Source: an uncultured Candidatus Rokubacteria bacterium
Lineage (GTDB): Bacteria > Methylomirabilota > Methylomirabilia > Rokubacteriales > CSP1-6
Assembly (NCBI GenBank): GCA_963771355.1
Contig: CAVYTA010000007.1
Span: 576,001-640,000 of the forward strand
Length of the DNA: 64,000 bases
Direction of reading: 5' to 3'
Part shown: one piece after another, positions 14,544-52,518 of the stretch
Layout: every line of letters starts with the position of its first letter
How positions within the stretch are numbered: the first letter of the stretch is position 1
Program-made: the position numbers and the translations under genes
Notes under the pieces: generated by a model
Told to the model about the DNA's origin: nothing
Database searches by the model: none
Seen by the model: the letters and a program-made list of their open reading frames with translations, nothing else

Positions 14544-14559
14544 TGCAACCGCCATGCCC
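14544..14559 (-). promoter_or_regulatory. sigma54 promoter for bEBP #1
   Basis: GGGCATGGCGGTTGCA (GG-N10-GC), just upstream of ATG 14529. Confidence 0.75.
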
Positions 14560-14796
14560 GGTCCCGCGCAGCCATTTGGCGCGGGTTTAGCGCAACTTAC
14601 AGCGAGAGGAAGGAAAGTCCCAGAACCTATTTACCGTGTAAATTTCGACCCAAAACGCCGCCACGATGGCTCGCGGCGTGTCGTCGGGTGGCTCGTCCGC
14701 CGAAGGAGTCGAGCACGGCGAAGAGCGCGCGCGCTCCTCGCCGTGCTCCGCATGCACCCACCGACCGCGGCCGGCGGGCGCTGATTGTCCCGAGTC

Positions 14797-15045
14797 CTAG
14801 CGCCGACGTGGCGGCGTGGAGGGGCGACTCTCGTCGGCGACGTCCCAGTCCGTCTCCTCGAGGAAGTCATCGAGCTCCTGCTCCGCCTGGTCCTTGGCGT
14901 AGCCGTAGCGCTCCTGGAGGAGGCCGGCCAGCTTCTCGAATCGGCCGGCGGACTTGTCCAGCTCGTCGTCGGTGAGCTCGCCCCACTTTTCCTTCACGGT
15001 GCCCTTGACCTTCTTCCACTTGCCTTCAAGGATGTCACGGTTCAT
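14797..15045 (-). CDS. CsbD family stress protein
   Basis: MNRDILEGKWKKVKGTVKEKWGELTDDEL...LQERYG; SD AAGGAGG. Confidence 0.93.
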   Translation of the reverse strand: MNRDILEGKWKKVKGTVKEKWGELTDDELDKSAGRFEKLAGLLQERYGYAKDQAEQELDDFLEETDWDVADESRPSTPPRRR

Positions 15046-15248
15046 AGCGCCCTCCTTGCTTGGGGAACGGGAGCAATATCCATGCAAGCCACTTCTTGCC
15101 GCGTAAGTGCGCGCCCGCTCGCGGATCGTGCGGACCGCGCCGGAGAAAGGCCGTCACATCGCGGGAGGGCGGGGGAGTCCCTACCGGGTAAAACGCCGTG
15201 ATTCTGTAAAACGCCGGGCGTCCATGAACGGTCGTCATCATGGCGGGA

Positions 15249-15264
15249 CGGTATTCAACTTGCA
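15249..15264 (+). promoter_or_regulatory. sigma54 promoter
   Basis: CGGTATTCAACTTGCA upstream of the gene at 15292. Confidence 0.65.
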
Positions 15265-15291
15265 CCATGGCGGAGGCGGGAGGACCAACAC

Positions 15292-15513
15292 ATGAAAGGG
15301 ATCACCATCGTCGGGGTGCTGCTCATCGTCCTGGGGGTCATCGCGCTCGGCTACGAGGGCATCACCTACACCACGCGCGAGAAGGTCCTCGACATCGGGC
15401 CGCTGAAGGCCAGCGTGGACAAGAAGAAGACCATCCCGCTCTCGCCGGCCCTGGGCGCGCTGGCGCTGGTCGGGGGGATCGTGCTGGTGGTGGTGGGCGC
15501 GCGGCGCGGGTAA
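15292..15513 (+). CDS. Small two-TM membrane protein (DUF3185-like)
   Basis: GVLLIVLG..TREKVLDIGPL..KTIPLSP; SD GGAGG. Confidence 0.8.
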   Translation: MKGITIVGVLLIVLGVIALGYEGITYTTREKVLDIGPLKASVDKKKTIPLSPALGALALVGGIVLVVVGARRG

Positions 15514-15525
15514 CTGCCGGTGCGC

Positions 15526-18156
15526 TCAGACCGGCCGGCCGGCGGCCGGAGCGCTGCCGGCGAGAAGCTGGACGAGCAGGGCGATCAGGGTGGCGGTGTT
15601 CACCGGCTTCGGCACGTGCAGGTCATAGCCGGCGTCGAGGATGCGCCGCCGGTCGTCCTCGCTCGCGTAGGCCGTCAAGGCCACGGCGCGGATGCGCCCG
15701 CCGCGCGTCGATTCGAGACGGCGCATGCGCTCGATGAGGCTGATGCCGTCCTCGCCCGGCATCCCGATGTCGGACACGAGCACGGCCGGCCAGCGCCGCG
15801 CCGCCTCCCCCATCGCCTCCGCCACCGAGGCGGCCGTGCTCACGTGGGCGCCCAGGCGGGCGAGGCTCACCGAGACCGCCTCGCGCGCGTCGGCATCGTC
15901 GTCGACCACGAGCACCGCGAGGTCCCGTAGCACCTCCCCCGCTGGTGCGGCGAGCTCCAGGCCCGCCGGACCCCGCCAGGGCCGCGTGCTCGCGGTGAGG
16001 GGCAGCATGACCGTGAAGGTGGTCCCCCGGGCCTCGCCGGGGCTTTCCGCCCGGATGGTGCCGTGGTGCAGCTCCACCAGCTGGCGCGCGATGGCCAGCC
16101 CCAGGCCGAGGCCGCCCTGCGGCCGGGTGGTGCTGCTGTCGCCCTGACGGAAGCGGTCGAAGATGTGTGGGAGGAGCGAGGGCGCGATGCCCTGACCCGA
16201 ATCGTGGACTTCCACCTCGGCGTCGGTGCCGCGCCGGCGGAGCCGGACCTCGATGCGCCCGCCCACCGGGGTGAACTTGAGCGCATTGGACAGGAGGTTC
16301 CACATCACCTGCTGCAGGCGGGTGGCGTCGCCGAGCACCGGCCCGACGTCCGGGTCGAGGGTCCTGACGACCGTGAGGTGCTTGGCCTCCGCGGTGGCCC
16401 GCACCGTTTCCACCGCGGACTCGATCACCGCCTGCAGCTCGATGGGGCCCAGCTCCAGGCGGAGCTTGCCCGACGCGATTCGCGAGATGTCGAGCAGGTC
16501 GTCGATGAGCTGCGCCTGGAGCGCGGCGTTGCGGTCGATGGTGTCGATCCCTCGCGCCAGCGTGTCCGGGTCCAATGGGCGCTGGCGGAGCACGCCGGCC
16601 CAGAGACGGAGCGCGTTGAGGGGCGTGCGCAGCTCATGGGACAAGGTGGCGAGGAACTCGTCCTTGGCCCGGTTGGCGCGCTCCGCGTCGCCGCGCGCAC
16701 GCTGCTCGCGCTCCAGTAGCTCCGAGCGCTCCGCCTCCGCCCGCTTCCGATCGGTGACGTCGAGGGCGACCAGGATGGCGAAGGGGGGCCGGCCGGTCTC
16801 CCGGATGGACGAGACCGATACGCTCGCCCACACCGACGTCCCGTCGGGACGGCGCAGCCGTACCTCGCGGGTCTGGTTGTGCCCGTGCTCCAGGGGGTCG
16901 GCGAGCAGGCGCCGCCCGTCCGCGGCGTCGTCCGGATGGATGAACTGCTCGAGTCGCGAGCCCAGCACCTGCTCGCGGGGGCGGCCCACCATGTCGCAGA
17001 GCCGGTCGTTGGCGAGGGTGAAGCCGCCCTCGAGGTCGAGCTGGGCGATGCCGGCGATGCTGCGGTCGATGATCGCGCTGAGGCGCTCCTCGCGGTCGCG
17101 CAGCGTTCGCTCTCCCTCCGCGCGCTGGAAGCCGGCGGTGAGGAGCGCGTCGGCCATGGAGTGGATCTCCTTCACCGGCGAGGGCGGATGGGTGGTCATC
17201 CGCCCCGAGCACAGGGCGTAGGCGGAGGCGGACAGCGCTTGCAGCGGACGCGTGATGCGCCGCCCCAGGATGGTGGCGGCTAGCCCGCTCAGGAGCAGGA
17301 AGCCCACGCCGCCCATCACCACCGCACCCAGCGAGCGCCAGAAGGGATACTCCACCACCGCGGTGGGAACGGCCACCACCACCGTCCAGCCCGCCGCCCC
17401 CGTGCGCGCGTTGGCGAAGTACACGGCGCGCCCCGTCGCGTCGGAGCCCTGGTGCCAGCCGGGCGCCTTCATGTCGCCCCCCGCGGTGACGGCCAGCGCC
17501 GAGCGCCGGCCGACCGCCTCGGCGTGTCCCGGATGCTGGGCGAGGATGCTGCCGTGCGCGTCGACCACCGAGGCCGACCATTCATCGGGATGCTTCTGCT
17601 CGGCAAGAATGTCCCGGAGCGAGCCCGGGGTGACGCTGGCGCTCAGGACGTAGAGGAGGGACACGTCGCGGAATACCGGCAACCGCACCATGTAGCTGCG
17701 ATCATCGGATCGCGGGCCGGCCATGAGTCCGCTCACCGCGGGGAAGCCGGACGACACCGCCCGCGTGAAGCTCTCGCGCTCCGTCACGGCCTCGGGCGAA
17801 TCCCCATAGGGAACGAGCGTGTTGAGGACGCGGCGGCCGTCGGGCTCGGCGAGCGTCACCGCCAGCCAGCCGCGCTGGGTCTCGAGGCGCCGGCGGGCAT
17901 CCGCATAGAAGAGCGAGAAGTCGCGGCGCTCGAGATTGCGCGAGGTGGCGAGGATCTTGAGGGTGCCGACGGTGTTGTTGAGCTCACGATCCACGGCGGC
18001 GGCGAGCCCACGCGCGGTGTCATGCAGCTCGCGCTCGACGGCGCCCCGGCGCTCGTCCGAGATGCTCAGCGCCAGCCAGCCGCTGAAGACCACGACGGGA
18101 AGGACGGCGGCGATCACCAGGATGAAGAGGTGGGCCCGGACGGAGAACCGCTTCAC
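15526..18156 (-). CDS. Membrane hybrid sensor kinase (Cache-like-HAMP-PAS-HisKA-HATPase-REC)
   Basis: Two TM segments, PAS (FIHPDD), FLATLSHELRTPL, NALKFT and C-terminal REC. Confidence 0.92.
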   Translation of the reverse strand: MKRFSVRAHLFILVIAAVLPVVVFSGWLALSISDERRGAVERELHDTARGLAAAVDRELNNTVGTLKILATSRNLERRDFSLFYADARRRLETQRGWLAVTLAEPDGRRVLNTLVPYGDSPEAVTERESFTRAVSSGFPAVSGLMAGPRSDDRSYMVRLPVFRDVSLLYVLSASVTPGSLRDILAEQKHPDEWSASVVDAHGSILAQHPGHAEAVGRRSALAVTAGGDMKAPGWHQGSDATGRAVYFANARTGAAGWTVVVAVPTAVVEYPFWRSLGAVVMGGVGFLLLSGLAATILGRRITRPLQALSASAYALCSGRMTTHPPSPVKEIHSMADALLTAGFQRAEGERTLRDREERLSAIIDRSIAGIAQLDLEGGFTLANDRLCDMVGRPREQVLGSRLEQFIHPDDAADGRRLLADPLEHGHNQTREVRLRRPDGTSVWASVSVSSIRETGRPPFAILVALDVTDRKRAEAERSELLEREQRARGDAERANRAKDEFLATLSHELRTPLNALRLWAGVLRQRPLDPDTLARGIDTIDRNAALQAQLIDDLLDISRIASGKLRLELGPIELQAVIESAVETVRATAEAKHLTVVRTLDPDVGPVLGDATRLQQVMWNLLSNALKFTPVGGRIEVRLRRRGTDAEVEVHDSGQGIAPSLLPHIFDRFRQGDSSTTRPQGGLGLGLAIARQLVELHHGTIRAESPGEARGTTFTVMLPLTASTRPWRGPAGLELAAPAGEVLRDLAVLVVDDDADAREAVSVSLARLGAHVSTAASVAEAMGEAARRWPAVLVSDIGMPGEDGISLIERMRRLESTRGGRIRAVALTAYASEDDRRRILDAGYDLHVPKPVNTATLIALLVQLLAGSAPAAGRPV

Positions 18157-18169: not shown

Positions 18170-18436
18170 TCACTTGGACGGGCGAGGCGCCTTCTTCTCG
18201 TCTCCGGGGGCGTTGTCGTCGATCCATTCCCGAGCCACCCGCACGCCCGTCGCCAGGGCGGCCGATTCGCTGGGGAACTCCGTGCCGTCCAGGTCGAGCG
18301 GGGTGGTGCTCACGCCGGTGGCGGTCTCATGCTGCACGGTCGCCACCGCCGCCCAGGCGCCGTCCGGACGCTGCTCGGTGGTGACCTCGATCTCGTACCC
18401 GGGAACGCCGGACGGCACGACGTGTCGCTGAATCAT
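18170..18436 (-). CDS. Hypothetical small protein (~88 aa)
   Basis: MIQRHVVPSG...; SD AGGAGG; lies between a sigma54 promoter and the kinase gene. Confidence 0.65.
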   Translation of the reverse strand: MIQRHVVPSGVPGYEIEVTTEQRPDGAWAAVATVQHETATGVSTTPLDLDGTEFPSESAALATGVRVAREWIDDNAPGDEKKAPRPSK

Positions 18437-18510
18437 TCGTGAACCCTCCTGGGCTGGACACGCGAGCTGGGCCCTGCTTGGTCCGCCTCTGTATAAAGGA
18501 ACCAATACTT

Positions 18511-18526
18511 TGCAAGCGGTGTGCCG
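18511..18526 (-). promoter_or_regulatory. sigma54 promoter
   Basis: CGGCACACCGCTTGCA. Confidence 0.85.
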
Positions 18527-18825
18527 CGAAGGTGCCCAGAAAGACGGCTGAAATGGTGCCTGGTTCTGCCGATTCGCGGGCCGGGTGCCTGACCCAGCCC
18601 CATTTTTTCCCAGGGCAGGGAATGCCTACCGTGTAGTTTCGGGGCCGCGCGCGTTGGTCCGACCCTGGCCCGACCCTTGCTCTCCGGACTGCCCGTGCAC
18701 GTCGCGCCCAGCTCGGGCCTGGCCTAGCCCAGGTTACTTCGAGGAGTCATCCACGGAGGCCCGCCCCGCCGAACGGCCGGGCGGGCGACTATCTACAGCC
18801 GGCTCGGGCTGGCGCGACGGGCTCG

Positions 18826-21346
18826 TCAGGGCAGAGCCTGATGCAAGGTCCAGTAGCGCGCCCAGGGATCGGCGCGCAGGGCCCCGAGGCGCCGTGGCAC
18901 GGTCTTCACCGTGTAGTGATCGGAGGGCAGGTCCGGCGCCAGCTCTTCCCAGGCGAGCGGGACCGAGACGGGGGCCTCCATCGTCGCGCGCGTGGAGAAT
19001 GCCGACACCGAGCTGGCGCCGCGCGTGTTCCGCAGGTAGTCGATGAAGATACGGCCCTTGCGCGCGGCCTTCGCCATGGTGGCGGTGAAGCGGTCGGGCT
19101 CGCTCCGGGCGATCGCGGTCGCCACCGCCCGGGTGAACTCGGTCACCTTCTCCCAGGACGAGGGCGCCAGCGGGACCACCACGTGGAGGCCCTTGCCCCC
19201 CGTGGTCTTCACGAAGCTCTCGAGCTTCACATCCCGCAGCGTGCGCCGGACCAGGCGCGCGGCGTCGAGCATCTGGGGCCAGCGCACTTCCGGGCCGGGA
19301 TCCAGGTCGAACACCGCGCGATCGGGCCGCTCGAGCTGCCGGGCCACCGCGTTCCAGGTGTGTATCTCGAGCACGCCCATCTGCACCAGCTCGATCAGCG
19401 CGGGCAGCGAGTCGGCGATGAGGAAGTCGCCGCCGCCGGCCTCCATGGTGATGCGCACACGCCGGAGAGCGGTGCCCGTGCCGGGGCGGGCATGGCGCTG
19501 GAAGAAGCACTTCGCGCCCACCCCTTCCGGGCAGCGCAGCAGCGTGGTGGGCCGGTCGGCGAGATGGGGCAGGATCCAGTCGGCCACCGCCTCGTAGTAA
19601 CGGGCGAGATCGCGCTTGGTCAGGCCGATCTCGGGATAGAGCACGCGGTCGGGGTGGGTGAGCTTCACGCCCGCGATGGTATCGGCCGCGCCGGAGGCGG
19701 CCGGAGGACGAGCGGCGGTGGTGCGGTGGCGCGCTCGCGAACGACCGCGCGGGCGGGCTTGTCCTCTCGTAAACCCTGGAACGAGGGATGGCGCATACGC
19801 CCATCGCCCGTCCACTCGGTGAAGGCGACTTCGCCGACGAGCTGGGGCTCCACCCAGTGGACTCGTTGAAAACGGGGCGCCGCGCCGAAGGGGCTGTCGC
19901 GCCGTCGGAGGCGCCGGAGGCGGGGGGCGAGCACGCGGAGGTCCGCGTCCGAGAAGCCCGTGCCGACCTTCCCCGCGTAGCGGAGCTGTGCGCCATCGCG
20001 CACCCCGACCAGGAGGGCGCCGAGCCCCACGCGCGCGCCGTCCGGCTCCGTGTAGCCGCCGATCACCACTTCCTGTCGCTTGAGACACTTGGTCTTGAGC
20101 CAGGTCATGCCGCGGCCGGAGGTGTACGGGGCGTCCCGCCGCTTGGACACCGCGCCCTCGAGGCCGAGCCCGCAGGCGCGGCGAAGGAACGCATCGCCGC
20201 CGCCCGTCACGTGTGCGGAGTAGCGCACGGGTCCGTCGGTCGCCTTCGCCTTCGAGAGGAGCGCCTCCAGGGCGGCCTTCCGGCTCTCGAGCGGCGCCCC
20301 GCGGAGATCGCGTCCGTCCAGATACAAGAGGTCGAAGGCCATGTAGACGAGCGTGCCGGCGTCTTGGCCTTCGCCCAGCCGTTGCTGCAGCGCTTGAAAG
20401 CTCGTGGTGCCGTCGGGCTTGAGCACCGCCACCTCGCCGTCCAGCAGGGCGGTGCGCGCGGGCAGGCGCGCAGCGGCGGTGGCGATGCCGGAGAAGCGGG
20501 CCGTCCAGTCCTTGTCGTTGCGGCTCAGCAGCCGGACGCCCCCCTGGTCGAGCCGGCAGAGAATACGATAGCCGTCGAACTTGATCTCGTGCAGCCACGC
20601 GTCACCCTCGGGCGCCTGGTCCACCAGCGTGGCGAGCTGCGGGGGCACGAAGCGCGGGAGCGCCGCGGACCGCGCGCCCGGGACCACACGAGGTGAGGGG
20701 GCCGCGACGCCGCGGGTCCGAGCGACGCGCTTGCGCCCTTCGCGTCGGGCCGGGCCGTTCTCGGAGGGCGCCGCGGCGGACGCGGCGGCGTCCTCACGCT
20801 CCTTGATCAGGAGCCAGGGCTCGCCTCGGCCCTCCTTGTCGCGCATGCGCACGAGCACCCAGCCGCCCCGCAGGCGCCGGCCATGGAGGACGAACTTGAG
20901 ATTGCCTTTGCGATATCCCTCGCGCGGGTCGCCCACCGGCGTCCAGGTGCCGCGATCCCAGATCTCGACCTTGCCGGCGCCGTACTCGCCGGCCGGGATC
21001 GTCCCCTTGAAGGTGGCGTACTCGAGGGGATGATCCTCGACGTGCATGGCGAGCCGCCTCACCTTGGGATCGAGGCTCGGGCCTTTCGGCACCGCCCAGC
21101 TCTTGAGCACGCCGTCCATCTCGAGACGGAAGTCGTAGTGAAGGCGGGAGGCGGCGTGCTTCTGAACGACGAAGATGGGGCCTCGCGCCTTTTTCTTGGA
21201 CCCCTTGACCTTCTTGGGGTCCCCTCGCGGGGCCCGTTGCCCGCGGCTCCGGCGTGGCCGCGAAGTCGCGCTTCCGATCGTACTCGGCGAGGCGAGAGCG
21301 GCGGCGCGCGGGCGCCTCAGACCGCGACGGCACCGGGATTGCCCAT
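18826..21346 (-). CDS. ligD: NHEJ DNA ligase D (phosphoesterase-ligase-polymerase; apparent frameshifts at ~21343?, ~21240 and ~19730)
   Basis: [57 protein letters not shown] and IFIDYLRN motifs; start position uncertain. Confidence 0.9.
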
Positions 21347-21592
21347 CGGCTCCTCAGGTACCGCCGCTCCGCTCGGGTAGATGTCGTCGGAGCCGTAGCG
21401 GAGTCGAGCGGGCACCGCGGCATCGTCCACCGCGCTGGCTCCGAATTCTTCGGGATGCTGATGCCTGAAGCAGGCCCGGATCATCTCGATGGCCGAGCGC
21501 GGTACTGGGGCAAAGCGGCCGGGTAAAATCTCACCGGCCGAAGTCACTTCCCTCTGATGGACCAGGTCCAGACGTAGAGACAATGTCGCCAT
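21317..21592 (-). CDS. Possible small hypothetical protein (91 aa) upstream of ligD
   Basis: ATG 21592 sits at the predicted start site of the sigma54 promoter at 21605-21620; no homology recognised. Confidence 0.35.
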
Positions 21593-21604
21593 AACACGCC
21601 GTGA

Positions 21605-21620
21605 AGCAAGAGCGATGCCA
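21605..21620 (-). promoter_or_regulatory. sigma54 promoter (towards ligD)
   Basis: TGGCATCGCTCTTGCT. Confidence 0.85.
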
Positions 21621-21645: not shown

Positions 21646-21661
21646 CGGCACGTCTCTTGCT
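21646..21661 (+). promoter_or_regulatory. sigma54 promoter (towards the kinase-DUF748-REC operon)
   Basis: CGGCACGTCTCTTGCT. Confidence 0.85.
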
Positions 21662-21673
21662 GCGGCTCTCATC

Positions 21674-22906
21674 ATGGACGCGCATACCGGGGGAGAGGAA
21701 ACCCAGCATCTTCGAGCGGAGCTGAAGCGCGAGCGGGCGGCCCGGGTTGCGGCCGAAGCAGCCAACCGGTCCAACGACGAGATGCTCAACGCGATCTCGC
21801 ACAAGCTCCGCAATCCTCTCAATACCATCATGCTCTGGAGCCAGGTACTGCGAGAGCAGCCCGGGGATCCCGCGCTCGTGACGCGGGCCCTGGATGGGCT
21901 GGAGCACGCGGCGCGTCTGCAGATCCGCATGATCGACACGCTCCTCGACATGTCCCGTATCGCACTGGGCCGGTTGCGGCTGGAAGTTCAGGACGTCCCG
22001 CTCCGGCCCATCGTCGAGAGCGCGGTGGAGGCGTCGCGGCCGCTCGCGGCCGCCAAGGCCATCACGCTGGACACGAATCTCGCCGCCGGCCTGATCGCGG
22101 TGTCGGGGGACGCGACTCGTCTGGGTCAGGTGATCTGGCACCTGCTCTCGAATGCGATCCAGCACACGCCGCGCGGGAGCACCGTACGGATCGGGCTCAC
22201 CCGGACCCAGAGCCTGGCGCGAGTCACGGTGCGTGATTCCGGGGCCGGAATCGAGTCGTCGCGGATTCCCACGATCTTCGATCTCCACCAGACCAGCAGC
22301 GGCGGGACCTCGACCGACGACGCGCCCGGCCTGGGCCTTTCGCTGACGCGCCACATCGTGGAGCTGCACGGCGGCACGGTCCACGCCGAGAGTCCCGGCC
22401 ACGGCGAGGGCGCCACGTTCTCCTTCGAGCTGCCGTTGCTCGGATCGAGCACGCCGGCGGTGGTCGACCACTCCGGCGAGCCGGGTGGCAACGGCGTCGG
22501 GACACCCATCCCGGTGTCCCTGGGCGGCTTGCGCATCCTGATCGTCGAGGATGAGCCCAGCGCGCGCGACAGCATGCGCATCATCCTCCAGCGCTGCGGC
22601 GCCGAGGTGGCGGCGGTGGGCTCGGCTCGTCAAGCGCTGGAGACGCTCGCCGAAGGCCGCTTCGACGTCCTGGTGAGCGACATCGCGATGCCCGGCGGGG
22701 ACGGCTACGAGTTGCTGCGCCGTGTGCGGGCGCTGGCGCCCGAGGATGGTGGGCAGATCCCCGCCGTCGCCGTCACCGCGCAGGGCCCGGAGTCGCGGTC
22801 CCGCGCCCTCGCGGAGGGCTTCCAGCTCTACCTGAACAAGCCGGTCGACGCCGCCCACCTGGTTCGCCTCGTCACCGCGCTGGGCGGGCGCGCCCGCGGG
22901 GCCTAG
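21674..22906 (+). CDS. Sensorless hybrid histidine kinase, degenerate (HisKA-HATPase-REC)
   Basis: ISHKLRNPL H-box, LLSNAIQHT, APGLGLSL and REC SDIAMPGGDG. Confidence 0.85.
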   Translation: MDAHTGGEETQHLRAELKRERAARVAAEAANRSNDEMLNAISHKLRNPLNTIMLWSQVLREQPGDPALVTRALDGLEHAARLQIRMIDTLLDMSRIALGRLRLEVQDVPLRPIVESAVEASRPLAAAKAITLDTNLAAGLIAVSGDATRLGQVIWHLLSNAIQHTPRGSTVRIGLTRTQSLARVTVRDSGAGIESSRIPTIFDLHQTSSGGTSTDDAPGLGLSLTRHIVELHGGTVHAESPGHGEGATFSFELPLLGSSTPAVVDHSGEPGGNGVGTPIPVSLGGLRILIVEDEPSARDSMRIILQRCGAEVAAVGSARQALETLAEGRFDVLVSDIAMPGGDGYELLRRVRALAPEDGGQIPAVAVTAQGPESRSRALAEGFQLYLNKPVDAAHLVRLVTALGGRARGA

Positions 22907-44317: not shown

Positions 44318-44470
44318 ATGAGCGCCTTAGAGCGTCGACCGCCACCGCCTCCACAGCCGCCGCCGCCCCCGGGACCCCCCGAGCCGCCGCCACCTCCGTC
44401 GCCTCCCCCGCCGCCGGTGGTCGAATACTTCAGCCCCGCCGGGATCTGCGTGGCCAGTACCTGGCGGTGA
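44318..44470 (+). CDS. Putative proline-rich mini-protein (50 aa)
   Basis: MSALERRPPPPPQPPPPPGPPEPPPPPSPPPPPVVEYFSPAGICVASTWR; ATG just after a sigma54 promoter. Confidence 0.45.
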   Translation: MSALERRPPPPPQPPPPPGPPEPPPPPSPPPPPVVEYFSPAGICVASTWR

Positions 44471-44699
44471 GTCGCGGCGCCAGAATCCACGCCGCGCCCG
44501 CCAGCAGCAGCGCGAGCGCGAATCCCCCCGTCTGACGAGCGGGAAGCCAGGTCCAGCCCGCGAGGGCGTGCCGGCGACGATCGAGCTCGGCCACCAGATC
44601 GTCGAGCCGCTCCCGGACCCCCGAGATCTCCTCTCCGAGTGCGCTGACGCGGTCCCCGGCGCCGTTGGCTTCCACTACGCGAGTCGTTCCTTCGCCCAT
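44430..44699 (-). CDS. Small coiled-coil/TM protein (DUF3618-like) downstream of the holin-like gene
   Basis: EEISGVRERLDDLVAELDRRRH plus a C-terminal TM; alternative GTG start at 44675. Confidence 0.65.
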   Translation of the reverse strand: MGEGTTRVVEANGAGDRVSALGEEISGVRERLDDLVAELDRRRHALAGWTWLPARQTGGFALALLLAGAAWILAPRLTARYWPRRSRRG

Positions 44700-46141
44700 T
44701 GCAGGTCCTCCTTGACGGTCTTGCGCGTGAGATCCAGCGGTGCCTGCACGCGGCGGCTCCAGGCCACCGCCCCCAGGACGGCGGCCACGACCAGCAGCAG
44801 CCCGCCCAGGGCCAGCGCGGCGACCCAGGCCGGCAGCCAGGCGGCCAGCGCGAGGACGGCGGCCATCAGCAGCAGATTGAGCGCGAGCAGGGCCAGAAGC
44901 GCCGCGGCGCCGAACAGCTTGACCATGCCGAGCGCGGCGTGGAAATCCTCGTCGAGCTCGGCGCGCGCCAGCTCTACCTCTTTATGGATGAGGACGGAGC
45001 TGAGGCCGACGATGCGGCGCATGAGCGCCACCGTGGAGAGCGCCCGCGGATTGTCCGCCGGCGCCGTGGTCACCGGGGTGGGGGCCATCGAAGGTGCCAT
45101 GATGTTGTCCTTTCCGAGTAGACGCGCCTCCAGCAGCTGCGGCCGGCCGGCCAGCGCCCGGTCGAGCTGCAGTATCTGCCGATAGACGACCTGCCACTCA
45201 TCGAACGGGAGCGGCCGCTCTGCCATCTCGGCCGTGATCGCATCGAGCCGTGAGCGGAGCGCCCAGGCATTGCGGTGCGCCTCCGGATCTCGCCGGTAGG
45301 CCGCCCACACTCGCTGGATCTGGCGCTCGATGTCCTGCGCCTCCGCGGTGACGGACTGGAACATGTCGGGCCGCCCGCTGAGCGCCTCCACCACCAGCAC
45401 GTGGACGCGCGCGGATGCCTCGACGGGGCCCCGCAGCAGCAGCGCGTTCGGATACAGCGCCAGCTCGAGCTCGCCGGCACGGAAATAGGCGGACTCGGCG
45501 GTGAGGAGGCCGGAGAGCGCGCTGCCCCCGATGCGCGTGAGGATGCGCGTGGGCAGCGCGCTCCACCAGGGCGGGCTCAGGGCCACCACGGAGATGCCAT
45601 GGCGGCGCAGCGTCTCGGCGACCAGCGCCGCCGCGGCGGGGTACGACTCGGACGTGGTCACCAGCGGCACGTGGACGTCCCGGTGTCCACGGAGCGCCGA
45701 GGCCACGCGCAGGACGGGGACGGTGACCAGGAGGACGAGAAAGGCCAGGGCCAGCCCTGCGGTGATGGGGAATCCGCGCAGGATGCTTTGGAAGAGACCC
45801 GGGCGCATTGCCCCTTTCTCCGCGGGCGGCGGTCGCAGCCCGACGCCAATCGAGATCGGGACGGCTAGCGCCAGCGCGATCCAGCCCAGGCGGACGAGCC
45901 ACGCGGGTAGAGCGTCCGGCAGCGGCACGAAGGCGAGGAAGAAGGCCGCGGCCTTGGGCGCCGCCACGCCGATCAAGAGCAGCGGCCAGGCGGCGGCCGA
46001 CGCCACCAGTCCCGACAGGAGCATCCGGCGTCGTCCGCTCACGCGGCCGAAGAGCGCCACCACCGCCCAGTCGAACAGAGCGGTGAGGATCTTCCCCACC
46101 GACCGGCTGATGAGGCTGAGGATGGCCTGGATCAGCGCCAT
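44675..46141 (-). CDS. Multi-TM membrane protein with C-terminal YqjE/phage-holin-like domain
   Basis: MALIQAILSL...; C-terminal LIHKEVELARAEL..TVKEDLQWAKE. Confidence 0.75.
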   Translation of the reverse strand: MALIQAILSLISRSVGKILTALFDWAVVALFGRVSGRRRMLLSGLVASAAAWPLLLIGVAAPKAAAFFLAFVPLPDALPAWLVRLGWIALALAVPISIGVGLRPPPAEKGAMRPGLFQSILRGFPITAGLALAFLVLLVTVPVLRVASALRGHRDVHVPLVTTSESYPAAAALVAETLRRHGISVVALSPPWWSALPTRILTRIGGSALSGLLTAESAYFRAGELELALYPNALLLRGPVEASARVHVLVVEALSGRPDMFQSVTAEAQDIERQIQRVWAAYRRDPEAHRNAWALRSRLDAITAEMAERPLPFDEWQVVYRQILQLDRALAGRPQLLEARLLGKDNIMAPSMAPTPVTTAPADNPRALSTVALMRRIVGLSSVLIHKEVELARAELDEDFHAALGMVKLFGAAALLALLALNLLLMAAVLALAAWLPAWVAALALGGLLLVVAAVLGAVAWSRRVQAPLDLTRKTVKEDLQWAKERLA

Positions 46142-46151
46142 GCGGGGCCCG

Positions 46152-47168
46152 TCAGGACTTCTTGCGCCGTCGCCGCGCCTCCCCGCGCCGCTTGCCGCGC
46201 GGGGCGCGGAGCGTCCGGAGCTGGGGGAGAATCTCCTCGGCGTAGAACTCGAAGAAGGCCTTCTGCTCCCGGCCGACCTGATGTACGCAGATGTGGTCGT
46301 AGCCCGCGTCGGCGTACTTGCGAATGGCGGCCAGATGCCGCGCGGGATCCGGTCCGCAGGTGATGGACTCCGCCACCTGCTCCTCGGTGACGAGCTCCGC
46401 CACCGACTCGAAGTGGGCGGGCAGCGGAAGCTCCCACGAGAGGTTACTTTCCATGGCGGAGGTGGGCCACTGCTCACGCGCGGTCCGGCGAGCGGTGGCC
46501 TCGTCCTTGGCATAGCAGACGGTCAGCTCCGCGTACCTTGGCTTGCCGGCCCCGCCCGCCTCGTCGAAGGCGGTCAGGAGCGAGGGATCCGGATCGGTGC
46601 CGATGACCCCGTCACCCAGACGGCCGGCCTGCTCGGCGCTGCGCGGGCCGCCCGCCGCCACGAAGAGTGGTGGCAGTACGTCGGGCAGCGTGTAGAGACG
46701 CGCGTTTTCCACCGTGAAGTAACGTCCGTGATGGCTCTGATTGCCCCCCTCCCAGAGCTGGCGGATCACTCCGATGGCTTCCTCCAGCCGCTCCTGCCGT
46801 ACCTCGGTCTCCGGCCATCCCTGCCCCACCACGTGCTCGTTCAGGTTCTCGCCCGTTCCCACGCCGAGGAAGAATCTCCCCGGCATGAGGGCCGCCGCGG
46901 TCGCGGCGGCCTGCGCGACGATGGCCGGATGCAGGCGCGTGGTGGGACAGGTAACCGCGGTACCGAGGGTCAGGCGCTGGGTCGCGTGGGCGATGGCGCC
47001 GATGACGCCCCACACGAAGGGACTCTGACCCTGCTTGTCGATCCAGGGGTGATAGTGGTCGGAGATGAGCGCGAAGCCGAAGCCCGAGTCCTGCGCCATC
47101 TGCGCATAGCGGACCAGGTCCAGCGGCGACTGCTCCTCGCTCGAGAGCTTGTAGCCGAGACTCAGCAT
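46152..47168 (-). CDS. LLM-class F420-dependent oxidoreductase (G6PDH-like family)
   Basis: GYKLSSEE, ISDHYHPW..QGQSPFVW, GTAVTCP and GTGENLNEH motifs. Confidence 0.9.
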   Translation of the reverse strand: MLSLGYKLSSEEQSPLDLVRYAQMAQDSGFGFALISDHYHPWIDKQGQSPFVWGVIGAIAHATQRLTLGTAVTCPTTRLHPAIVAQAAATAAALMPGRFFLGVGTGENLNEHVVGQGWPETEVRQERLEEAIGVIRQLWEGGNQSHHGRYFTVENARLYTLPDVLPPLFVAAGGPRSAEQAGRLGDGVIGTDPDPSLLTAFDEAGGAGKPRYAELTVCYAKDEATARRTAREQWPTSAMESNLSWELPLPAHFESVAELVTEEQVAESITCGPDPARHLAAIRKYADAGYDHICVHQVGREQKAFFEFYAEEILPQLRTLRAPRGKRRGEARRRRKKS

Positions 47169-47172
47169 GCTG

Positions 47173-47862
47173 CTAGCCGCCATTGCGCCGAAGGGCTGCG
47201 ATGCGATCGTCGGTGGCGGGATGGGTCGAGAAGAAGCCGCCCTCGCTTCCGCCCTCGGTCTGGAGCAGCCAGGTCAGCGTCTCTTCCATCACCTTCGGGG
47301 AATGCCCGGCGCGCTTGAGGAGCTCCGCCCCGTGCGCGTCGGCCTGGTACTCCTCCTGGCGGCCGTACGCCCGGGAGATGAGGGTGCCCGCCACCGGGGC
47401 GAGCTGACCGCTGCCCGGAATGATCTGATCGAGAATCACCATGCCGATGGCGACGCCCGTCTGCACGCGCTGCTGCTTGGCCACGTGGCGCAGGTCGTCA
47501 TGGGCCACCTCGTGGGCGAGGACGCCGGCCAGGTGCTGGTCATTGGCCTTGCGCAGGAGGCCGGTGGTGACGAGGAACTGCCCGTCGCCGGCGCTGCCCG
47601 CGTTGACGCGATCGTCGTCTACGATGGCGACCTTCACTTGATTCAGGGGCCGCTTGTTGTCGGCAGCCTGAAGGAGAGGCAGCATCACCCGCTTCAGCCG
47701 CTCGGCCTGGGCGGGATCGATGCGCGCGGTGGAGGACCGCGGCGCGCTCGCGGTGGGATTCCCGCCGCTCGACGACGACGGCGGGGCGGGGCTGGACACT
47801 GGCGCCGCGCAGGCGGCGGCGAGGGAGAACGCGGCGAGGAGCGCAGTGAGGGTGGTTTTCAT
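47173..47862 (-). CDS. M48 family metallopeptidase lipoprotein
   Basis: Lipobox LAAAC, HEVAH, EYQAD and STHP motifs. Confidence 0.88.
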   Translation of the reverse strand: MKTTLTALLAAFSLAAACAAPVSSPAPPSSSSGGNPTASAPRSSTARIDPAQAERLKRVMLPLLQAADNKRPLNQVKVAIVDDDRVNAGSAGDGQFLVTTGLLRKANDQHLAGVLAHEVAHDDLRHVAKQQRVQTGVAIGMVILDQIIPGSGQLAPVAGTLISRAYGRQEEYQADAHGAELLKRAGHSPKVMEETLTWLLQTEGGSEGGFFSTHPATDDRIAALRRNGG

Positions 47863-47867
47863 GGCGG

Positions 47868-48194
47868 CTACCCGCTCGTCTTCACGGAGAGATTGTTGAC
47901 CACCGCATTCACACCCTTCACGCTCCAGGCGATGTTCGAGGCGCGCTGCTTCATCTCCTGGCTGTCGACGAGCCCGTTGAGATAGACGGTCCGATGATTC
48001 GTGTCGACATCTACCTTGGTGAGGGTCGACACCTTCTCGGCGGCAAGCTTGGCCTTGACCTGGGTGGTGATGGTGGCGTCGTCGACGCTCTCCCCGGCGG
48101 TCTTGGCCACGCCGGAGGAGCAAGCGGCCAGGACCAGCATCGCCAGCAAAGCGACGGACAGCAGTCTCAGATCTCTCAGACGTAGCATGGCCAT
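47868..48194 (-). CDS. BON domain lipoprotein
   Basis: LAAC lipobox; DDATITTQVKAKL..VYLNG..VVNNL. Confidence 0.9.
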   Translation of the reverse strand: MAMLRLRDLRLLSVALLAMLVLAACSSGVAKTAGESVDDATITTQVKAKLAAEKVSTLTKVDVDTNHRTVYLNGLVDSQEMKQRASNIAWSVKGVNAVVNNLSVKTSG

Positions 48195-48256
48195 TTTCTC
48201 CTTTTCTTCGTCTCGTTCTTCTGGAGCGTGACTTGAGGCGCTATGGCCACTCTCCG

Positions 48257-48272
48257 GGCAAGTGATGTGCCA
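48257..48272 (-). promoter_or_regulatory. sigma54 promoter
   Basis: TGGCACATCACTTGCC. Confidence 0.88.
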
Positions 48273-48498: not shown

Positions 48499-48514
48499 TG
48501 GCACTGTGATTGCG
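48499..48514 (+). promoter_or_regulatory. sigma54 promoter
   Basis: TGGCACTGTGATTGCG. Confidence 0.88.
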
Positions 48515-48561
48515 TGCTCCGGAACCCGTGCGCACCGCTTAGAAAAAGGGAGATCAAGGTC

Positions 48562-48867
48562 ATGGACAGGAAGAAGAGGGAGTCGAAGCAGACAGACGAC
48601 GACCAGTCGCGCGAACCTGGCCGTCATCCCCAGGCGCCAGAGCCCGAGCACCGGCACCCGGATTCGAATCGTCCTGACACGCTCCGACCGGGCCCCGGTC
48701 AGCGAGAGTCGGCCGCTGAGCGAGAGTCGAAGCAAGGGGCGCGTCAGGGCGACGAGAGCCAGGTGGCGAGCGCGGAGCTGGACGACGAAGACGACGAGGA
48801 CGATAGACGACGAGAGACGACGATGACGATGACGACAGCGACGACGTGGACACCGACGACGAGGTAA
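48562..48867 (+). CDS. Highly hydrophilic/acidic low-complexity protein (true end may be 48884)
   Basis: MDRKKRESKQTDDDQ...DDEDDEDD; the GAC-rich tail reads as poly-Asp in an alternative frame. Confidence 0.65.
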   Translation: MDRKKRESKQTDDDQSREPGRHPQAPEPEHRHPDSNRPDTLRPGPGQRESAAERESKQGARQGDESQVASAELDDEDDEDDRRRETTMTMTTATTWTPTTR

Positions 48868-48895
48868 GGGCGGCTCGGCCGTGAGGAGGAAAGTC

Positions 48896-49261
48896 ATGAA
48901 GACCTGGCCGAGTCGAGCATTTCGCGCGATGGGACTGGGAGTCGTCCTTGGGGCGGCGGCGTTCATGGGGCTGGGACCCCTGGCGCCGCCGCCGGCCTGG
49001 GCCGAGCCGGAAGTGGCGATCATCGAAACCCGCGCTGCTCTCGAGGATGAGTCCAGCGACGGCGTCAATGCGGCACTCAGAAAGGCGCTGGAGAAGGCGA
49101 TCCGGGGTGCCGCCGCCATGGGGCTTGGCCAGGTGCGGATCAACAGCGCCTATCGGGGGCCGAGCTTCGTCGTGATCCAGATCCTCGCGACCACCGAGAC
49201 GGAGGGCGAGACGAGCGCGGGGCCCCGGGTCGGCGAGGCCACGCCGGGCAACCGGTTCTAG
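48896..49261 (+). CDS. Secreted hypothetical protein
   Basis: SD GAGGAGG; signal peptide ending AWA. Confidence 0.7.
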   Translation: MKTWPSRAFRAMGLGVVLGAAAFMGLGPLAPPPAWAEPEVAIIETRAALEDESSDGVNAALRKALEKAIRGAAAMGLGQVRINSAYRGPSFVVIQILATTETEGETSAGPRVGEATPGNRF

Positions 49262-49296: not shown

Positions 49297-51168
49297 TCAG
49301 CGTGCCTCCTCCGGTACGGAGGACAGCTCGGGCCAGGAGGAGCGAGACTCCGCCGCGGCGGGGTCCTCCGGGCGGGCGGCGAGCCGCAGGGCCGCCGCAC
49401 GGGCCTTGATGAGCGACGTGACGAACGCGTCGGCTCCCGCGGCGCGGAGCGCGCGACGCCTCGCGGCAGTTCGCGCGACGCCGCACTGATAGACGAGGAT
49501 GGGTGTGTCCGGCGCCGCCTCGCGCAGCCGCTTCACGAGGTGGCGCAGGCGGCGGCCGCCGCCAGGACCGACGGCGCCGACGCAGACGAGGGCGGCGCCC
49601 GCTGCCTGGAGCGCGCCGACTGTCTCCACCGAAGGCGGACCCGGGGGAACGACGTGCACGAGGAAGCCGGCGGGGGTGAGCAGTCGTCCCAGCATGGCCA
49701 GCGCCGTCTCGTCCACCGCGTCACGAAGCGGCACCGCGGCCACCACCGTGGCGGCCGTCATCGAATCCGGCGCGCCCGCGGGCGCGGCCGGCGCATCGGC
49801 GGGCTCATACTCCACCAGCTTCCGGGTGACCTCCACGATACGCGCGTACTCCGCGCGCGAGAGCTGGCGCGCGAGCCGGTCGCGACGGGCGCGCGCGAGG
49901 GCGGGCAAGACCAGAGTGTCGAAGGCCGTCTCCAGGGAGGATGCCTTCACCGCCTCTGTCATCAGATCCGCCGCCTCGTTCTCGTCCCCGGCCAGCAGCC
50001 GCTGATAGAGGGTGACCGACGGCTTCACGCCTGAGTCGTCGCTCAGCAGGATCCCGATGAACTCGAGCCCGTCGACCGTCCGCGCGAAGACGACGAGGAG
50101 CACGGTCAAGGGCGTGGAGAGAACCAACCCAATTGGTCCCCACAGCCAGGTCCAGAAGGCGGCGCCGACCAGGAGCGCGAGCGCGGACACCCCGGCGCTC
50201 CAGCTGAAGAGCAGTGGCTCGAGCACGAAGGCCACGGTCACCTCGGTGACGATGAAGAGCCCCATGATGAGCAGCGGCCTGGTCCAGCCGTCGAAGACGG
50301 CCAGGCTCAGCATGATGGGAAGGAGCGCGGCCACCCACGCGCCGACGTAGGGGATGAAGCGCAGCATGCCCGCGAAGAAGCCGAGGGCAAGCGCGAAGGG
50401 CACGCCGAGGAGGTAGAGGCCCACGCCGATAGCGAGGCCGAAGCTTCCGTTGATGAGGGATTGCATGAGGAGGTAGCGGCTGATCCGATTGCCCGCCTCG
50501 TCGAGGAGCCGCGTGGTCGTCGCCAGATGGTGATGGCCGAAGAGTCGCACCACGCGCGCCCGGAGCTCTCGCTGCTGGATGAGGACGAAGAAGAGGAGAA
50601 CGATGACCAGGGTCGCCGAGCCGAGCGCCTCGAGCAGGTTCGGGATCGACCACAGCGCAGGCGAGGAGACCACCACCGGCACCGGCTTCTCGGCGCCGGG
50701 ATCGGGGGGGGTGCTTTTCTCGATTTGCTTCATGACGTCCTTGGCGGTGGCTTCCATCTTCTCCAGCGTCCCGCCGCGCCGCGCCTGCTGGATGTCCGAG
50801 ATCTTGCGGGTGATGGTCACCCGGTACTTCGGCAGCTCATTGGCGAGCGTGGCGATCTGAGCGGTGAGGGCCCAGCCCAGCGCGGCCGCGACGAGGAGGG
50901 CGAACAGGCCGACGGTCACCGCCGCCGGCACCCGCGGTAGGCCCCAACGCCGCAGGAGGTTCACCAGCGGAGTGAGGAGAAAGGCGAGCAGCAGCGCCAG
51001 CGCGACGGGGATCGCGACCACGCGCGCCCAGTAGAGACAGGCCACCGTCAGGACCATCCCGGCCAGGACGACGAAGCGCCGGCTGACGGCGGGGGTGGAG
51101 CGCGGGTGCCGCGGTGGCCGTCCGGCGCGCGGGCGCGCCGGCCCCCCCGCGGCACCCGCCCGGCTCAC
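49297..51168 (-). CDS. AI-2E family transporter with C-terminal soluble domain
   Basis: IPVALALLLAFLL.P, RFIPYVG and WLWGPIGLVLSTPLT motifs. Confidence 0.88.
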   Translation of the reverse strand: MSRAGAAGGPARPRAGRPPRHPRSTPAVSRRFVVLAGMVLTVACLYWARVVAIPVALALLLAFLLTPLVNLLRRWGLPRVPAAVTVGLFALLVAAALGWALTAQIATLANELPKYRVTITRKISDIQQARRGGTLEKMEATAKDVMKQIEKSTPPDPGAEKPVPVVVSSPALWSIPNLLEALGSATLVIVLLFFVLIQQRELRARVVRLFGHHHLATTTRLLDEAGNRISRYLLMQSLINGSFGLAIGVGLYLLGVPFALALGFFAGMLRFIPYVGAWVAALLPIMLSLAVFDGWTRPLLIMGLFIVTEVTVAFVLEPLLFSWSAGVSALALLVGAAFWTWLWGPIGLVLSTPLTVLLVVFARTVDGLEFIGILLSDDSGVKPSVTLYQRLLAGDENEAADLMTEAVKASSLETAFDTLVLPALARARRDRLARQLSRAEYARIVEVTRKLVEYEPADAPAAPAGAPDSMTAATVVAAVPLRDAVDETALAMLGRLLTPAGFLVHVVPPGPPSVETVGALQAAGAALVCVGAVGPGGGRRLRHLVKRLREAAPDTPILVYQCGVARTAARRRALRAAGADAFVTSLIKARAAALRLAARPEDPAAAESRSSWPELSSVPEEAR

Positions 51169-51266
51169 GGCCAGTTACCGGGAAGAAAGTCGAGCAGGAA
51201 CGCGATGGCCGCCAGGACAAGGACGAGGAAGACGTGGACGCCGGGTGGCTGCCGAAGGGTCAGCAT
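51165..51266 (-). CDS. Putative 33-aa TM peptide (not in ORF track)
   Basis: MLTLRQPPGVHVFLVLVLAAIAFLLDFLPGNWP; SD GAGGG; GTGA overlap with the AI-2E start. Confidence 0.55.
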   Translation of the reverse strand: MLTLRQPPGVHVFLVLVLAAIAFLLDFLPGNWP

Positions 51267-51274
51267 GGTGTCCC

Positions 51275-51607
51275 TCACCCTTTCTTCTGGACGATGAGAT
51301 GGTTGACGACGCCGTTCACGTGAGTGACGCTCCAGGCGATCTCGGCCGCGCGCTGGCGCGTCTCCTCGCTGTCCACCACGCCGGTCAAGTACACGGTGCG
51401 CAGGTTGGTCTCCACCCCCACGCGGGTGAGGGTGGCGAGCTTCTCGGCGGCGAGCCGGCTCTTCACCGCCGCGGTGATCTGCGCGTCATCCGCGTTCTCG
51501 CCGGCAGTCTGGCCGGTCAGGGACGAGCAGGCCGCCAGCAGGGTCACCAGCGCCAGCAGGGTGAGCGTCGCGAACGGGGACCGAGATCGCCGGGACCGCG
51601 GGCGCAT
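51275..51607 (-). CDS. BON domain lipoprotein (paralog of 47868..48194)
   Basis: LAACSS..TAGE..DDAQITAAVKSRLAAEK. Confidence 0.9.
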   Translation of the reverse strand: MRPRSRRSRSPFATLTLLALVTLLAACSSLTGQTAGENADDAQITAAVKSRLAAEKLATLTRVGVETNLRTVYLTGVVDSEETRQRAAEIAWSVTHVNGVVNHLIVQKKG

Positions 51608-51609
51608 CG

Positions 51610-52200
51610 TTATTTCCTCGGTTCCCCGAGCTGCTCGAGGAGGGTCTTGAGCTCGTCGGCGTGCTCCTCCTCGTTGCCGAGCACACCCTCGAGCATGCGC
51701 CGGGTGGTCGGATCGCCCTCGCCCACGAACCGGATCATCTCCAGGTACGACTCGATGGCAATGCGCTCTGCCACCAGGTTCTCTCGAATCATGTCCACGA
51801 GGTCTCCGCCCTCCACGTACTCGCTGTGGCTGCGCGTGGCCAGGCCCTCGGGGGAGAAGTCGGGCTCCCCGCCGAGCTGCACGATGCGCTTGGCGATCTT
51901 GTCCGCGTGGCCCTGCTCCTCGGTGGCGTGCTTCATGAATTCCTCGGCGACCGCCTGGGCGTGGATTCCCGCCGCCATGAAGTGATGCCGGCGGTAGCGG
52001 AGCACGCAGATGAGCTCGGTGGCGAGCGCGGTATTGAGGAGGCGGATGACCGCCTCACGATCCACCTGGTGGCTCTCGGTCACGGCGCCGTCATCCATGT
52101 GCTCGCGGGCCCGCCGACGCAGCTCCTTCACGTCGGACAGGAAGTCCCCGCCGCCTCCCTCCTGCCCCTTCCCCTTGTCGCGCATGTCCCCAGTTTTCAC
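51610..52200 (-). CDS. Ferritin-like / bacterioferritin family protein
   Basis: ATELICVLRY, EEQGHAD, AERIAI..Y and EEEHAD di-iron motifs; GTG start after AAGGAG. Confidence 0.9.
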   Translation of the reverse strand: MKTGDMRDKGKGQEGGGGDFLSDVKELRRRAREHMDDGAVTESHQVDREAVIRLLNTALATELICVLRYRRHHFMAAGIHAQAVAEEFMKHATEEQGHADKIAKRIVQLGGEPDFSPEGLATRSHSEYVEGGDLVDMIRENLVAERIAIESYLEMIRFVGEGDPTTRRMLEGVLGNEEEHADELKTLLEQLGEPRK

Positions 52201-52259
52201 GTCGCGCTCCTTTTGGGTGTTCGAGCTCCGGCCGTTCGCGTCCAGACAGACGATCGAAC

Positions 52260-52275
52260 GGCAAACCCCGTGCCA
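52260..52275 (-). promoter_or_regulatory. sigma54 promoter
   Basis: TGGCACGGGGTTTGCC. Confidence 0.88.
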
Positions 52276-52368
52276 GCGAGGGACGGGTGGGGGCGGTCGA
52301 ACTGAAGCCTGCGGAATCTCAGGAAGCCGGGACAGACGATCCCGCGGCGACGACGCCGGCGCCAAGCA

Positions 52369-52402
52369 TGTCAAACTTACCGAAGCCGGTAGTCCTGACC
52401 CG
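52369..52402. promoter_or_regulatory. Candidate enhancer pair
   Basis: TGTCAAACTTACC followed by GGTAGTCCTGACC. Confidence 0.62.
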
Positions 52403-52502
52403 ATGCCGCTCCGAGTGGGTGGTGGCGCATCCGGGGGGTCGCCTCCGCGAGAGCGTGTGAAAAATCAGCGCGGAGCCCGCGGAGTGGCAGGTGATGGCGG
52501 GC

Positions 52503-52518
52503 TGGCACGGAAGATGCC
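52503..52518 (+). promoter_or_regulatory. sigma54 promoter
   Basis: TGGCACGGAAGATGCC. Confidence 0.82.

Follow-up and report, generated by a model that had tools for sequence, protein, structure and literature searches.

Three textbook general stress responses of bacteria each rest on a dedicated sigma factor of the sigma70 family. In the RpoS and SigB regulons this factor is set by proteolysis or partner switching, and CsbD/YjbJ, OsmY/BON, KatE, YqjE, YmgE and trehalose genes are typical members. In the available portion of a Sphingopyxis study, csbD, catalases and ku-ligD are direct targets of EcfG (PMC7083833). For sigma54, the accessible text on NmpRSTU of Myxococcus xanthus describes an NtrC-like activator, a multi-component phosphorelay, tandem palindromic enhancers and sigma54 promoters with universal stress protein (USP) and CBS targets (PMC11841059), and that on Planctomycetia an enrichment of USPs under sigma54 (PMC12316311). 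Here we analyzed a window of 64,000 nucleotides, meaning the whole stretch, from an uncultured Candidatus Rokubacteria bacterium of the order Rokubacteriales, within Methylomirabilota (assembly GCA_963771355.1, contig CAVYTA010000007.1, positions 576,001 to 640,000). It contains an island of csbD, BON, ligD and ferritin-like genes behind sigma54-type promoters. A sequence-only reading had listed eighteen such promoters and proposed that the general stress response is wired to sigma54 in this one island.

The island was found to be a real, conserved feature; its parts are known, and its wiring was found in no description. We consider it probable that the island forms the core of a general-stress-type sigma54 regulon, with about 16-20 promoters of the -24/-12 type that a phosphorelay would switch on through two bacterial enhancer-binding proteins (bEBPs), bEBP2 and then bEBP1.

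Sigma54-type promoters and their conservation

The GG-N10-GC signature was present on the predicted strand at all 18 listed positions (minus-strand numbers give the low end of the 16-mer). The fuller form (T/C)GGCAC-N5-TTGC, which had been said to prevail, matched exactly at 9 of the 18, so at half of the sites and not at most. We scored the sites with a sigma54 matrix trained on 54 intergenic TGGCA-N6-TTGC sites, all outside the window, and 14/18 reached at least 9 bits. Two sites absent from the earlier list were added: 18667(+), with 16.4 bits, and a variant with TG in place of GG before csbD at about 15073-15088(-). A strict-motif match at 21328(+), in the 5' region of ligD, also lies outside the 18.

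The strict motif occurred 10 times in the island against 0.33 times per 39 kb in the remaining genome, and eight patterns with wrong spacing gave 0-1 island matches each. The intergenic DNA of the island (3,511 bp) held 17 matches, whereas 300 dinucleotide shuffles averaged 0.29 and never exceeded 3. The proposed clustering held against shuffled DNA, the rest of the genome and the wrong-spacing controls, the last of which were near zero. A site was found before 15 of the 24 lead genes in the island versus 113/1,973 elsewhere, as counted with our own gene caller, hand-picked island starts and upstream windows of 220 nt (island) and 200 nt (elsewhere). The claim that the flanking housekeeping genes carry no such promoters also stood: the window flanks had 0 intergenic matches scoring at least 9, and the sole outside match, at 63184, was intragenic. 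GG and GC at the exact -24/-12 spacing, by which a sigma54-dependent regulon is recognized, lie upstream of genes in the island.

Consensus sequences read by other stress sigma factors were found at 0/19 island promoters. This was the case for the EcfG promoter GGAAC-N16/17-CGTT (positive control 20/30; PhyR and NepR were not searched for), for the SigB-type promoter GTTT-N-GGGWA, and for the RpoS-type -10 element in its enteric-type consensus, which may differ from the specificity of the RpoS-like protein of this host. An Rfam search of the window gave no match.

We then surveyed csbD across genomes. In the order, 31 genomes were searched and a sigma54 motif within 300 nt upstream was found at 18 of 23 csbD genes, in 17/19 csbD-bearing genomes (one contributed by the unpublished genome G016), while wrong spacing gave 0/23. 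The csbD promoter (15073-15088, -) has TG for the invariant GG in this genome (G000) and in G002; 16 further csbD genes in the order retain GG. G002 and G006 have a syntenic island, with 18 and 10 sites, and G028, G030 and G025 a reshuffled one, with 20, 23 and 8; wrong spacing gave 0-6. In the island of family f4 (G028:C4:90000-155000), DUF1328, Fe/Mn superoxide dismutase, glycogen/trehalose enzymes, an encapsulin with ferritin cargo, ku and gas-vesicle genes were found behind sigma54 sites.

Outside the order, the motif was less regular. A Bradyrhizobium-seeded family served as the alphaproteobacterial control: at the 30 csbD loci examined of 54 matches, the EcfG motif was found at 20 and the sigma54 motif at one, that of the seed genome. 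In a few Bradyrhizobium genomes (loci L346, L050 and L142), csbD has a sigma54 motif; L346 lacks the EcfG consensus, and its csbD is possibly a laterally acquired copy. The sigma54 motif was present at 5/30 csbD loci (of 44 matches) in a Casimicrobiaceae-seeded family, at 3/15 in Binatia and at 3/13 in Vicinamibacterales, the seed genome being counted in each of the latter two. In the Planctomycetota sample, csbD was found in the seed genome only. A scan of the species collection for the motif-to-csbD-start pattern, made without a denominator, gave an estimated 440 stretches or so; among the 120 loci listed, titles were mostly from Betaproteobacteria, with Methylomirabilota, Binatia, Planctomycetota and others also present. 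The flanks of 80 pattern loci held 52 further correctly spaced motifs versus 10 and 10 wrong-spaced ones. By these counts, csbD is as a rule wired to sigma54 in this order and patchily so outside it. Among ku genes, only 3 of the 30 examined (of 48 matches) carried the motif, two of them clearly of one paralogue type. The motif is therefore not general noise, and the idea that all ku genes are sigma54-linked was rejected.

Activators, sigma factors and upstream palindromes

The host genome (5.5 Mb, about 70% GC, 99.8% complete) has one rpoN, an open reading frame (ORF) of 481 aa (PF04552, E 8.6e-62), which agrees with what the proposal requires. Its product is 74% identical to those of two Candidatus Methylomirabilota records and one Deferrimicrobiaceae-titled record, and 48-51% identical to those of Binatia and Vicinamibacterales. 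The genome has 27 bEBP matches, 24 of them strong. The two NtrC-type activators predicted in the window were recovered, each with REC, AAA+ (GAFTGA) and helix-turn-helix domains, and in both the receiver aspartate, the Walker motifs and GAFTGA are intact. The gene for bEBP1 lies behind a sigma54 site, and that for bEBP2 has none.

There were 16 matches to sigma70 region 2, of which the 13 scanned comprised RpoD, a second RpoD-like protein, ten of the extracytoplasmic function (ECF) type and one RpoS-like protein. The second RpoD-like sigma has 491 aa (G000:C6:1333846-1335321), and the primary RpoD is encoded in the dnaG locus. The RpoS-like protein has TIGR02394 as its best match (309 bits; cut-off 378.7), and its gene follows an NlpD-like M23 gene; from their N-termini, we take the genes before it to be surE and pcm, which would make up the canonical surE-pcm-nlpD locus. 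The earlier reading, which implied that no alternative stress sigma is available, was thus wrong at the level of the genome. A SigB/F-type sigma was not found among the 13/16 matches scanned, nor was an RsbV-type STAS protein, STAS domains being seen only in two frames of about 570 aa. Because an RpoS-like gene is present in the surE-pcm-nlpD locus, the idea that sigma54 replaces a missing RpoS was rejected. In the betaproteobacterial family sampled, sigma54-csbD occurred in 4/9 genomes with rpoS and in 1/10 without (one rpoS call being just under the cut-off). A Borrelia-type cascade from RpoN to RpoS was also rejected, as no site was found: the best score near the rpoS-like locus was 5.5 bits here and at most 7.2 in 11 relatives.

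Upstream palindromes were found to differ between two sister families, in counts that rest on motifs derived from these same promoter sets. With one mismatch allowed, TACC-N-GGTA was present at 22/39 promoters of family f1, 0/46 of family f4 and 58/1,264 of the background, while G(A/T)CA-N3-TG(A/T)C was present at 29/46 in f4, often in tandem copies 19 nt apart, 1/39 in f1 and 21/1,264 in the background. The shared element is thus clear in f4; it is weaker in this genome, at 10/20 promoters versus 58/1,264. In the bEBP1 promoter, the palindrome TTTACACGGTAAA lies about 78 nt upstream of GG, and one TACC-N-GGTA palindrome is common to the csbD promoter and that of the 73-aa membrane protein (15249). 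The activators differ as well. In three genomes of the genus the island contains a pair of bEBPs, and the f4 island has a different one; in a quick tree, the f1 pair forms one clade and the f4 island protein groups with another bEBP of G000. An ISLKTLHNKL-type bEBP is retained by family f4 at a different locus, although TACC-N-GGTA is missing from its island. An attempt to assign palindromes to activators by helix-turn-helix type failed.

Gene content, RNA coverage and sites elsewhere in the genome

The target families named from sequence were borne out by Pfam, with CsbD, four BON proteins, DUF3309, PRC, LigD, ferritin-like, PLD/cardiolipin synthase and YqjE-like proteins identified. Signalling genes comprise two hybrid kinases, a lone receiver, a HisKA-only protein, a KaiC-kinase pair and the two REC-AAA+-HTH activators. 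Taken over island and off-island targets, the Pfam content is a general-stress-type set (CsbD, BON, non-homologous end joining, catalase, ferritin and trehalose genes).

Table 1 Features of the island, in window coordinates (bits are sigma54 matrix scores).
Feature	Position	Strand	Remark
KaiC-like ATPase and histidine kinase	8075..11294	-	Pfam KaiC, HisKA/HATPase
bEBP1, NtrC-type activator (REC-AAA+-HTH, intact GAFTGA)	13162..14529	-	sigma54 site 14544-14559
csbD with non-canonical sigma54-like site (TG replacing GG)	14797..15088	-	Pfam CsbD
Weak sigma54 site (4.7 bits) and 73-aa membrane protein	15249..15513	+	
PAS hybrid histidine kinase	15526..18156	-	own sigma54 site not found
DUF6566 small protein	18170..18526	-	sigma54 site 18511-18526
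Strong sigma54 site (16.4 bits)	18666..18681	+	downstream ORF not evident
ligD (phosphoesterase, ligase, polymerase; frameshifted in assembly)	18826..21620	-	sigma54 site 21605-21620
Sigma54 site, hybrid kinase, DUF748 protein, single-domain receiver	21646..24909	+	
Sigma54 site and 177-aa glycine-rich protein	24946..25550	+	no Pfam match
80-aa small protein	25608..25894	-	strongest sigma54 site (22.7 bits)
Sigma54 site, DUF3309, double-BON/PG-binding protein	26009..27171	+	covered by RNA-library contigs, four studies
82-aa hydrophobic ORF	27379..27670	-	sigma54 site 27655-27670
Giant glucoamylase/GH94 protein, frameshift-split	27805..36487	+	own sigma54 site not found
Sigma54 site, PRC-barrel, Cys-rich 77-aa protein, DUF2231, YgaP/SRPBCC, MBL-fold hydrolase	36618..39658	+	
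Sigma54 site and BON protein	39669..40097	+	
HisKA-only 127-aa protein with sigma54 site	40153..40582	-	divergent from bEBP2
bEBP2, NtrC-type activator	40726..42081	+	no sigma54 site upstream
Class A penicillin-binding protein with sigma54 site	42102..44115	-	
Doubtful sigma54 site (-1.6 bits), 46-aa proline-rich ORF	44289..44470	+	
Sigma54 site, BON lipoprotein, M48 peptidase, F420-type LLM oxidoreductase, YqjE-like (holin-X domain) protein, 89-aa ORF	44430..48272	-	
Sigma54 site, 101-aa highly charged ORF, 121-aa ORF	48499..49261	+	
Sigma54 site, ferritin-like protein, BON lipoprotein, AI-2E transporter	49297..52275	-	
Weaker sigma54 site (7.7 bits) and PLD/cardiolipin-synthase-like gene	52503..53792	+	

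Several of these features merit comment. A GTP-type phosphoenolpyruvate carboxykinase gene (11322-12980) lies between bEBP1 and kaiC and also follows bEBP1 in G002 and G006; the KaiC-kinase pair is probably the tail of a transcript from bEBP1 through this gene. The strong site at the start of 18666-18830 has a palindrome upstream and no evident ORF downstream. This stretch is GC-rich and converges on the end of ligD, and it could be a small RNA. The giant GH94 protein is presumably cyclic beta-1,2-glucan synthase-like. For bEBP1 (14529-14559), the 410-aa hybrid kinase (21646-21674) and the cardiolipin-synthase-like gene (52503-52532), no more than about 4 nt separate the predicted +1 from the start codon, which suggests leaderless mRNAs for all three.

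Most island genes are covered by contigs from soil and rhizosphere RNA libraries (six runs, four studies), which record presence only, may include DNA and do not allow starts to be read. Part of 24400-27700 was held by 20 runs, 14 of them recorded as RNA. Ends that fall 9-67 nt past a predicted +1 were seen in several listed pieces, and among the 64 longest pieces listed (603 more exist), one crosses a site of the earlier list. As contigs cannot show starts and only the longest pieces were compared, these ends were not counted as support. Sparse coverage of ligD, the 876-aa kinase and the flanks should not be read as silence. At 38132, 51607 and 53476, RNA contigs carry compensating one-base differences that remove frameshifts, which are therefore likely assembly errors; further frameshifts are present in ligD and in the 27805-36487 gene.

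The claim that the wiring is confined to one island did not hold. Further sites cluster on contig C1 (108-158 kb), and katE, ku, topIB, treY and ymgE elsewhere carry the motif. The part of this cluster at C1:108000-136500 has some 11 strong sites ahead of genes of the USP, CBS/BON, pyridoxamine-oxidase-like and MBL-rhodanese types and includes a bEBP of its own. It is similar to hypoxia/dormancy loci, and the island palindrome is mostly missing from it. Pfam was run on 91 off-island targets (89 scoring at least 12.5 and two lower-scoring ones). These included three USPs, CBS proteins, topoisomerase IB, a long catalase, Ku, a TreY-like protein, YmgE and PLD, together with ordinary sigma54 clients such as urea/nitrogen, pilus, PEP-CTERM, polysaccharide and MlaC genes.

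The proposed regulon, its rivals and known systems

Survival genes lie behind sigma54-type promoters, and their programme is therefore likely switched on by an ATP-driven activator. In the proposed regulon, signals would enter through the hybrid kinases of the island, the single-domain receiver, the HisKA-only protein and the KaiC-kinase pair. Without a sigma54 site, bEBP2 would be made first and is a candidate master switch. Either bEBP2 or bEBP1 may bind the TACC-N-GGTA palindromes, which are located some 60-125 nt ahead of the -24 element, and the phosphorylated activators would open closed complexes of sigma54-RNA polymerase at about 16-20 island promoters and several outside. Since sigma54 sites also precede bEBP1, a hybrid kinase and the HisKA protein, feedback would arise. 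Stress would induce the genes in a sigma54-dependent manner, and the result would be a tight switch that controls protective small proteins, remodelling of the envelope, storage of iron, the joining of DNA ends and the metabolism of trehalose/glycogen. Off the island, ku, katE, topIB, treY and ymgE are putative further members. An RpoS-like sigma, whose gene lacks a sigma54 site, is present alongside this proposed circuit.

Several observations weigh against this proposal. Four of the listed sites are weak (15249, 4.7 bits; 26009, 6.7; 52503, 7.7; 44289, -1.6), 44289 is doubtful as a sigma54 promoter, and 9/24 island lead genes score below 9. The stretch around csbD in G010 was not enriched (6 matches versus 5 and 1 for wrong spacing), and a scan for the IHF consensus found none at 19 promoters. 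The palindrome evidence speaks for the proposal but is qualified at several points, and its enrichment was more modest in held-out tests. One such test found it at 5/15 island promoters versus 6/149 other sigma54 promoters and 16/1,264 of the background, with a training set (G002/G006) homologous to the test set. In another, scores for 16 stress-type promoters off the island exceeded those for 121 others (p=0.017), the list of 16 having been made by hand after earlier scores were known. Palindrome counts are not independent, because divergent promoters share DNA, and the palindrome is poor at katE, topIB, ymgE and a DUF892 gene. An orthologue of the f4 island bEBP is retained in this genome, although no more than 3/164 of its sigma54 promoters have the f4 palindrome. 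Finally, the RpoS-like gene is present and conserved, with matches at E<=1e-60 in 21/30 relatives, and the RpoS-like sigma could share the island promoters through a specificity of its own.

In the main rival, the promoters are real sigma54 promoters of a single-cue regulon (envelope or osmotic, oxygen or energy, or a switch of cell type), and the general stress response is left to the RpoS-like sigma. We consider it unlikely. The canonical, conserved locus of the RpoS-like gene would fit it, as would the many envelope targets in the island (BON, penicillin-binding protein, glucan enzyme, cardiolipin synthase) and the use of sigma54 here for nitrogen, pilus, PEP-CTERM and polysaccharide genes; in the accessible text, NmpR of M. 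xanthus likewise governs a sigma54 regulon that answers one cue, oxygen, and includes USP and CBS genes (PMC11841059). However, csbD, catalase and ku-ligD are direct general-stress targets of EcfG in the available portion of the Sphingopyxis report (PMC7083833). The motif is moreover found at genes of cytoplasmic protection, namely ligD, ku, the long catalase, topIB, ferritin-like and trehalose/glycogen genes.

It is improbable that sigma54 acts mainly as a poised or repressing complex or a second input, with transcription from overlapping sigma70 or RpoS promoters. Binding of sigma54 to promoters without an activator is known, several promoters lack a good palindrome, and one RNA contig spans the site at 24946. 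Yet the islands of three genus members hold two bEBPs and the f4 island a different one, a tandem palindrome at a fixed spacing of 19 nt lies upstream in f4, and no RpoS-type -10 consensus was seen at the 19 promoters. A chance origin of the sites in GC-rich DNA is very improbable overall. Bare GG-N10-GC occurs 1,755 times in the window and 44289 scores below zero, but the spacing, shuffle, genome-wide and cross-genome controls refute chance for the 14 strong sites; 44289 and 15249 may be chance matches.

If the proposed sigma54/bEBP stress response is true, it would be tight, ATP-gated and silent until activated. The lineage consists of widespread uncultured soil bacteria whose regulation is nearly unknown, and its island genes are found in soil and rhizosphere RNA libraries. 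Promoters and activators are amenable to work in E. coli without culturing the host, and the motif can help to list the stress genes of metagenome-assembled genomes, among which are many small proteins without a Pfam match. The two families, which differ in activator and palindrome, offer a natural case of regulon rewiring. More broadly, we hold it an evenly balanced possibility that Rokubacteriales, and patchily Betaproteobacteria, Binatia, Vicinamibacterales and Planctomycetota, have a fourth general-stress architecture, in which a survival regulon would be gated by sigma54 and a phosphorylated ATPase activator in place of a dedicated stress sigma, with core promoters fixed and the activator and its binding site swapped between sister families.

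No description of a sigma54-wired stress gene island was found in the literature covered, which leaves out most subscription journals. A term search for CsbD in the available text of two comparative sigma54 papers found none (PMC3162934, without supplements; PMC12316311, with 11 supplement files). The described systems each share some features with the island. Similar gene families make up the RpoS regulon of Gamma- and Betaproteobacteria and the SigB regulon of Bacillota, and an RpoS-like gene is present here; unlike in those regulons, the island promoters are of the -24/-12 type, and a SigB/F-type sigma was not found in the 13/16 matches scanned. The EcfG-NepR-PhyR regulon of Alphaproteobacteria, as far as the source is available, matches in its target families csbD, catalases and ku-ligD. 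Its promoter GGAAC-N16-CGTT, in contrast, is read by an ECF sigma and occurs at 20/30 alphaproteobacterial csbD loci versus 0/19 island promoters. NmpRSTU is, on its accessible text, the closest precedent for the second cluster on C1. It differs in controlling oxygen use through the enhancer GCGCA-N5-TGCGC, and that text names no CsbD/BON/LigD set (these terms were not searched for). In the Borrelia Rrp2-RpoN-RpoS pathway, a bEBP and sigma54 also stand above a stress and adaptation programme (PMC4014564); in the portion available, sigma54 drives rpoS there, whereas here the motif is at effector genes. NtrC, ZraR and AtoC (PDB 4l4u, 1ny5, 3dzd) share with bEBP1 and bEBP2 the REC-AAA+-HTH architecture and intact catalytic motifs. 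Both island activators nevertheless fall below the cut-off of every named NCBIfam equivalog shown. Typical members of the NtrC family drive one or a few operons, whereas about 20 stress-type promoters are found here.

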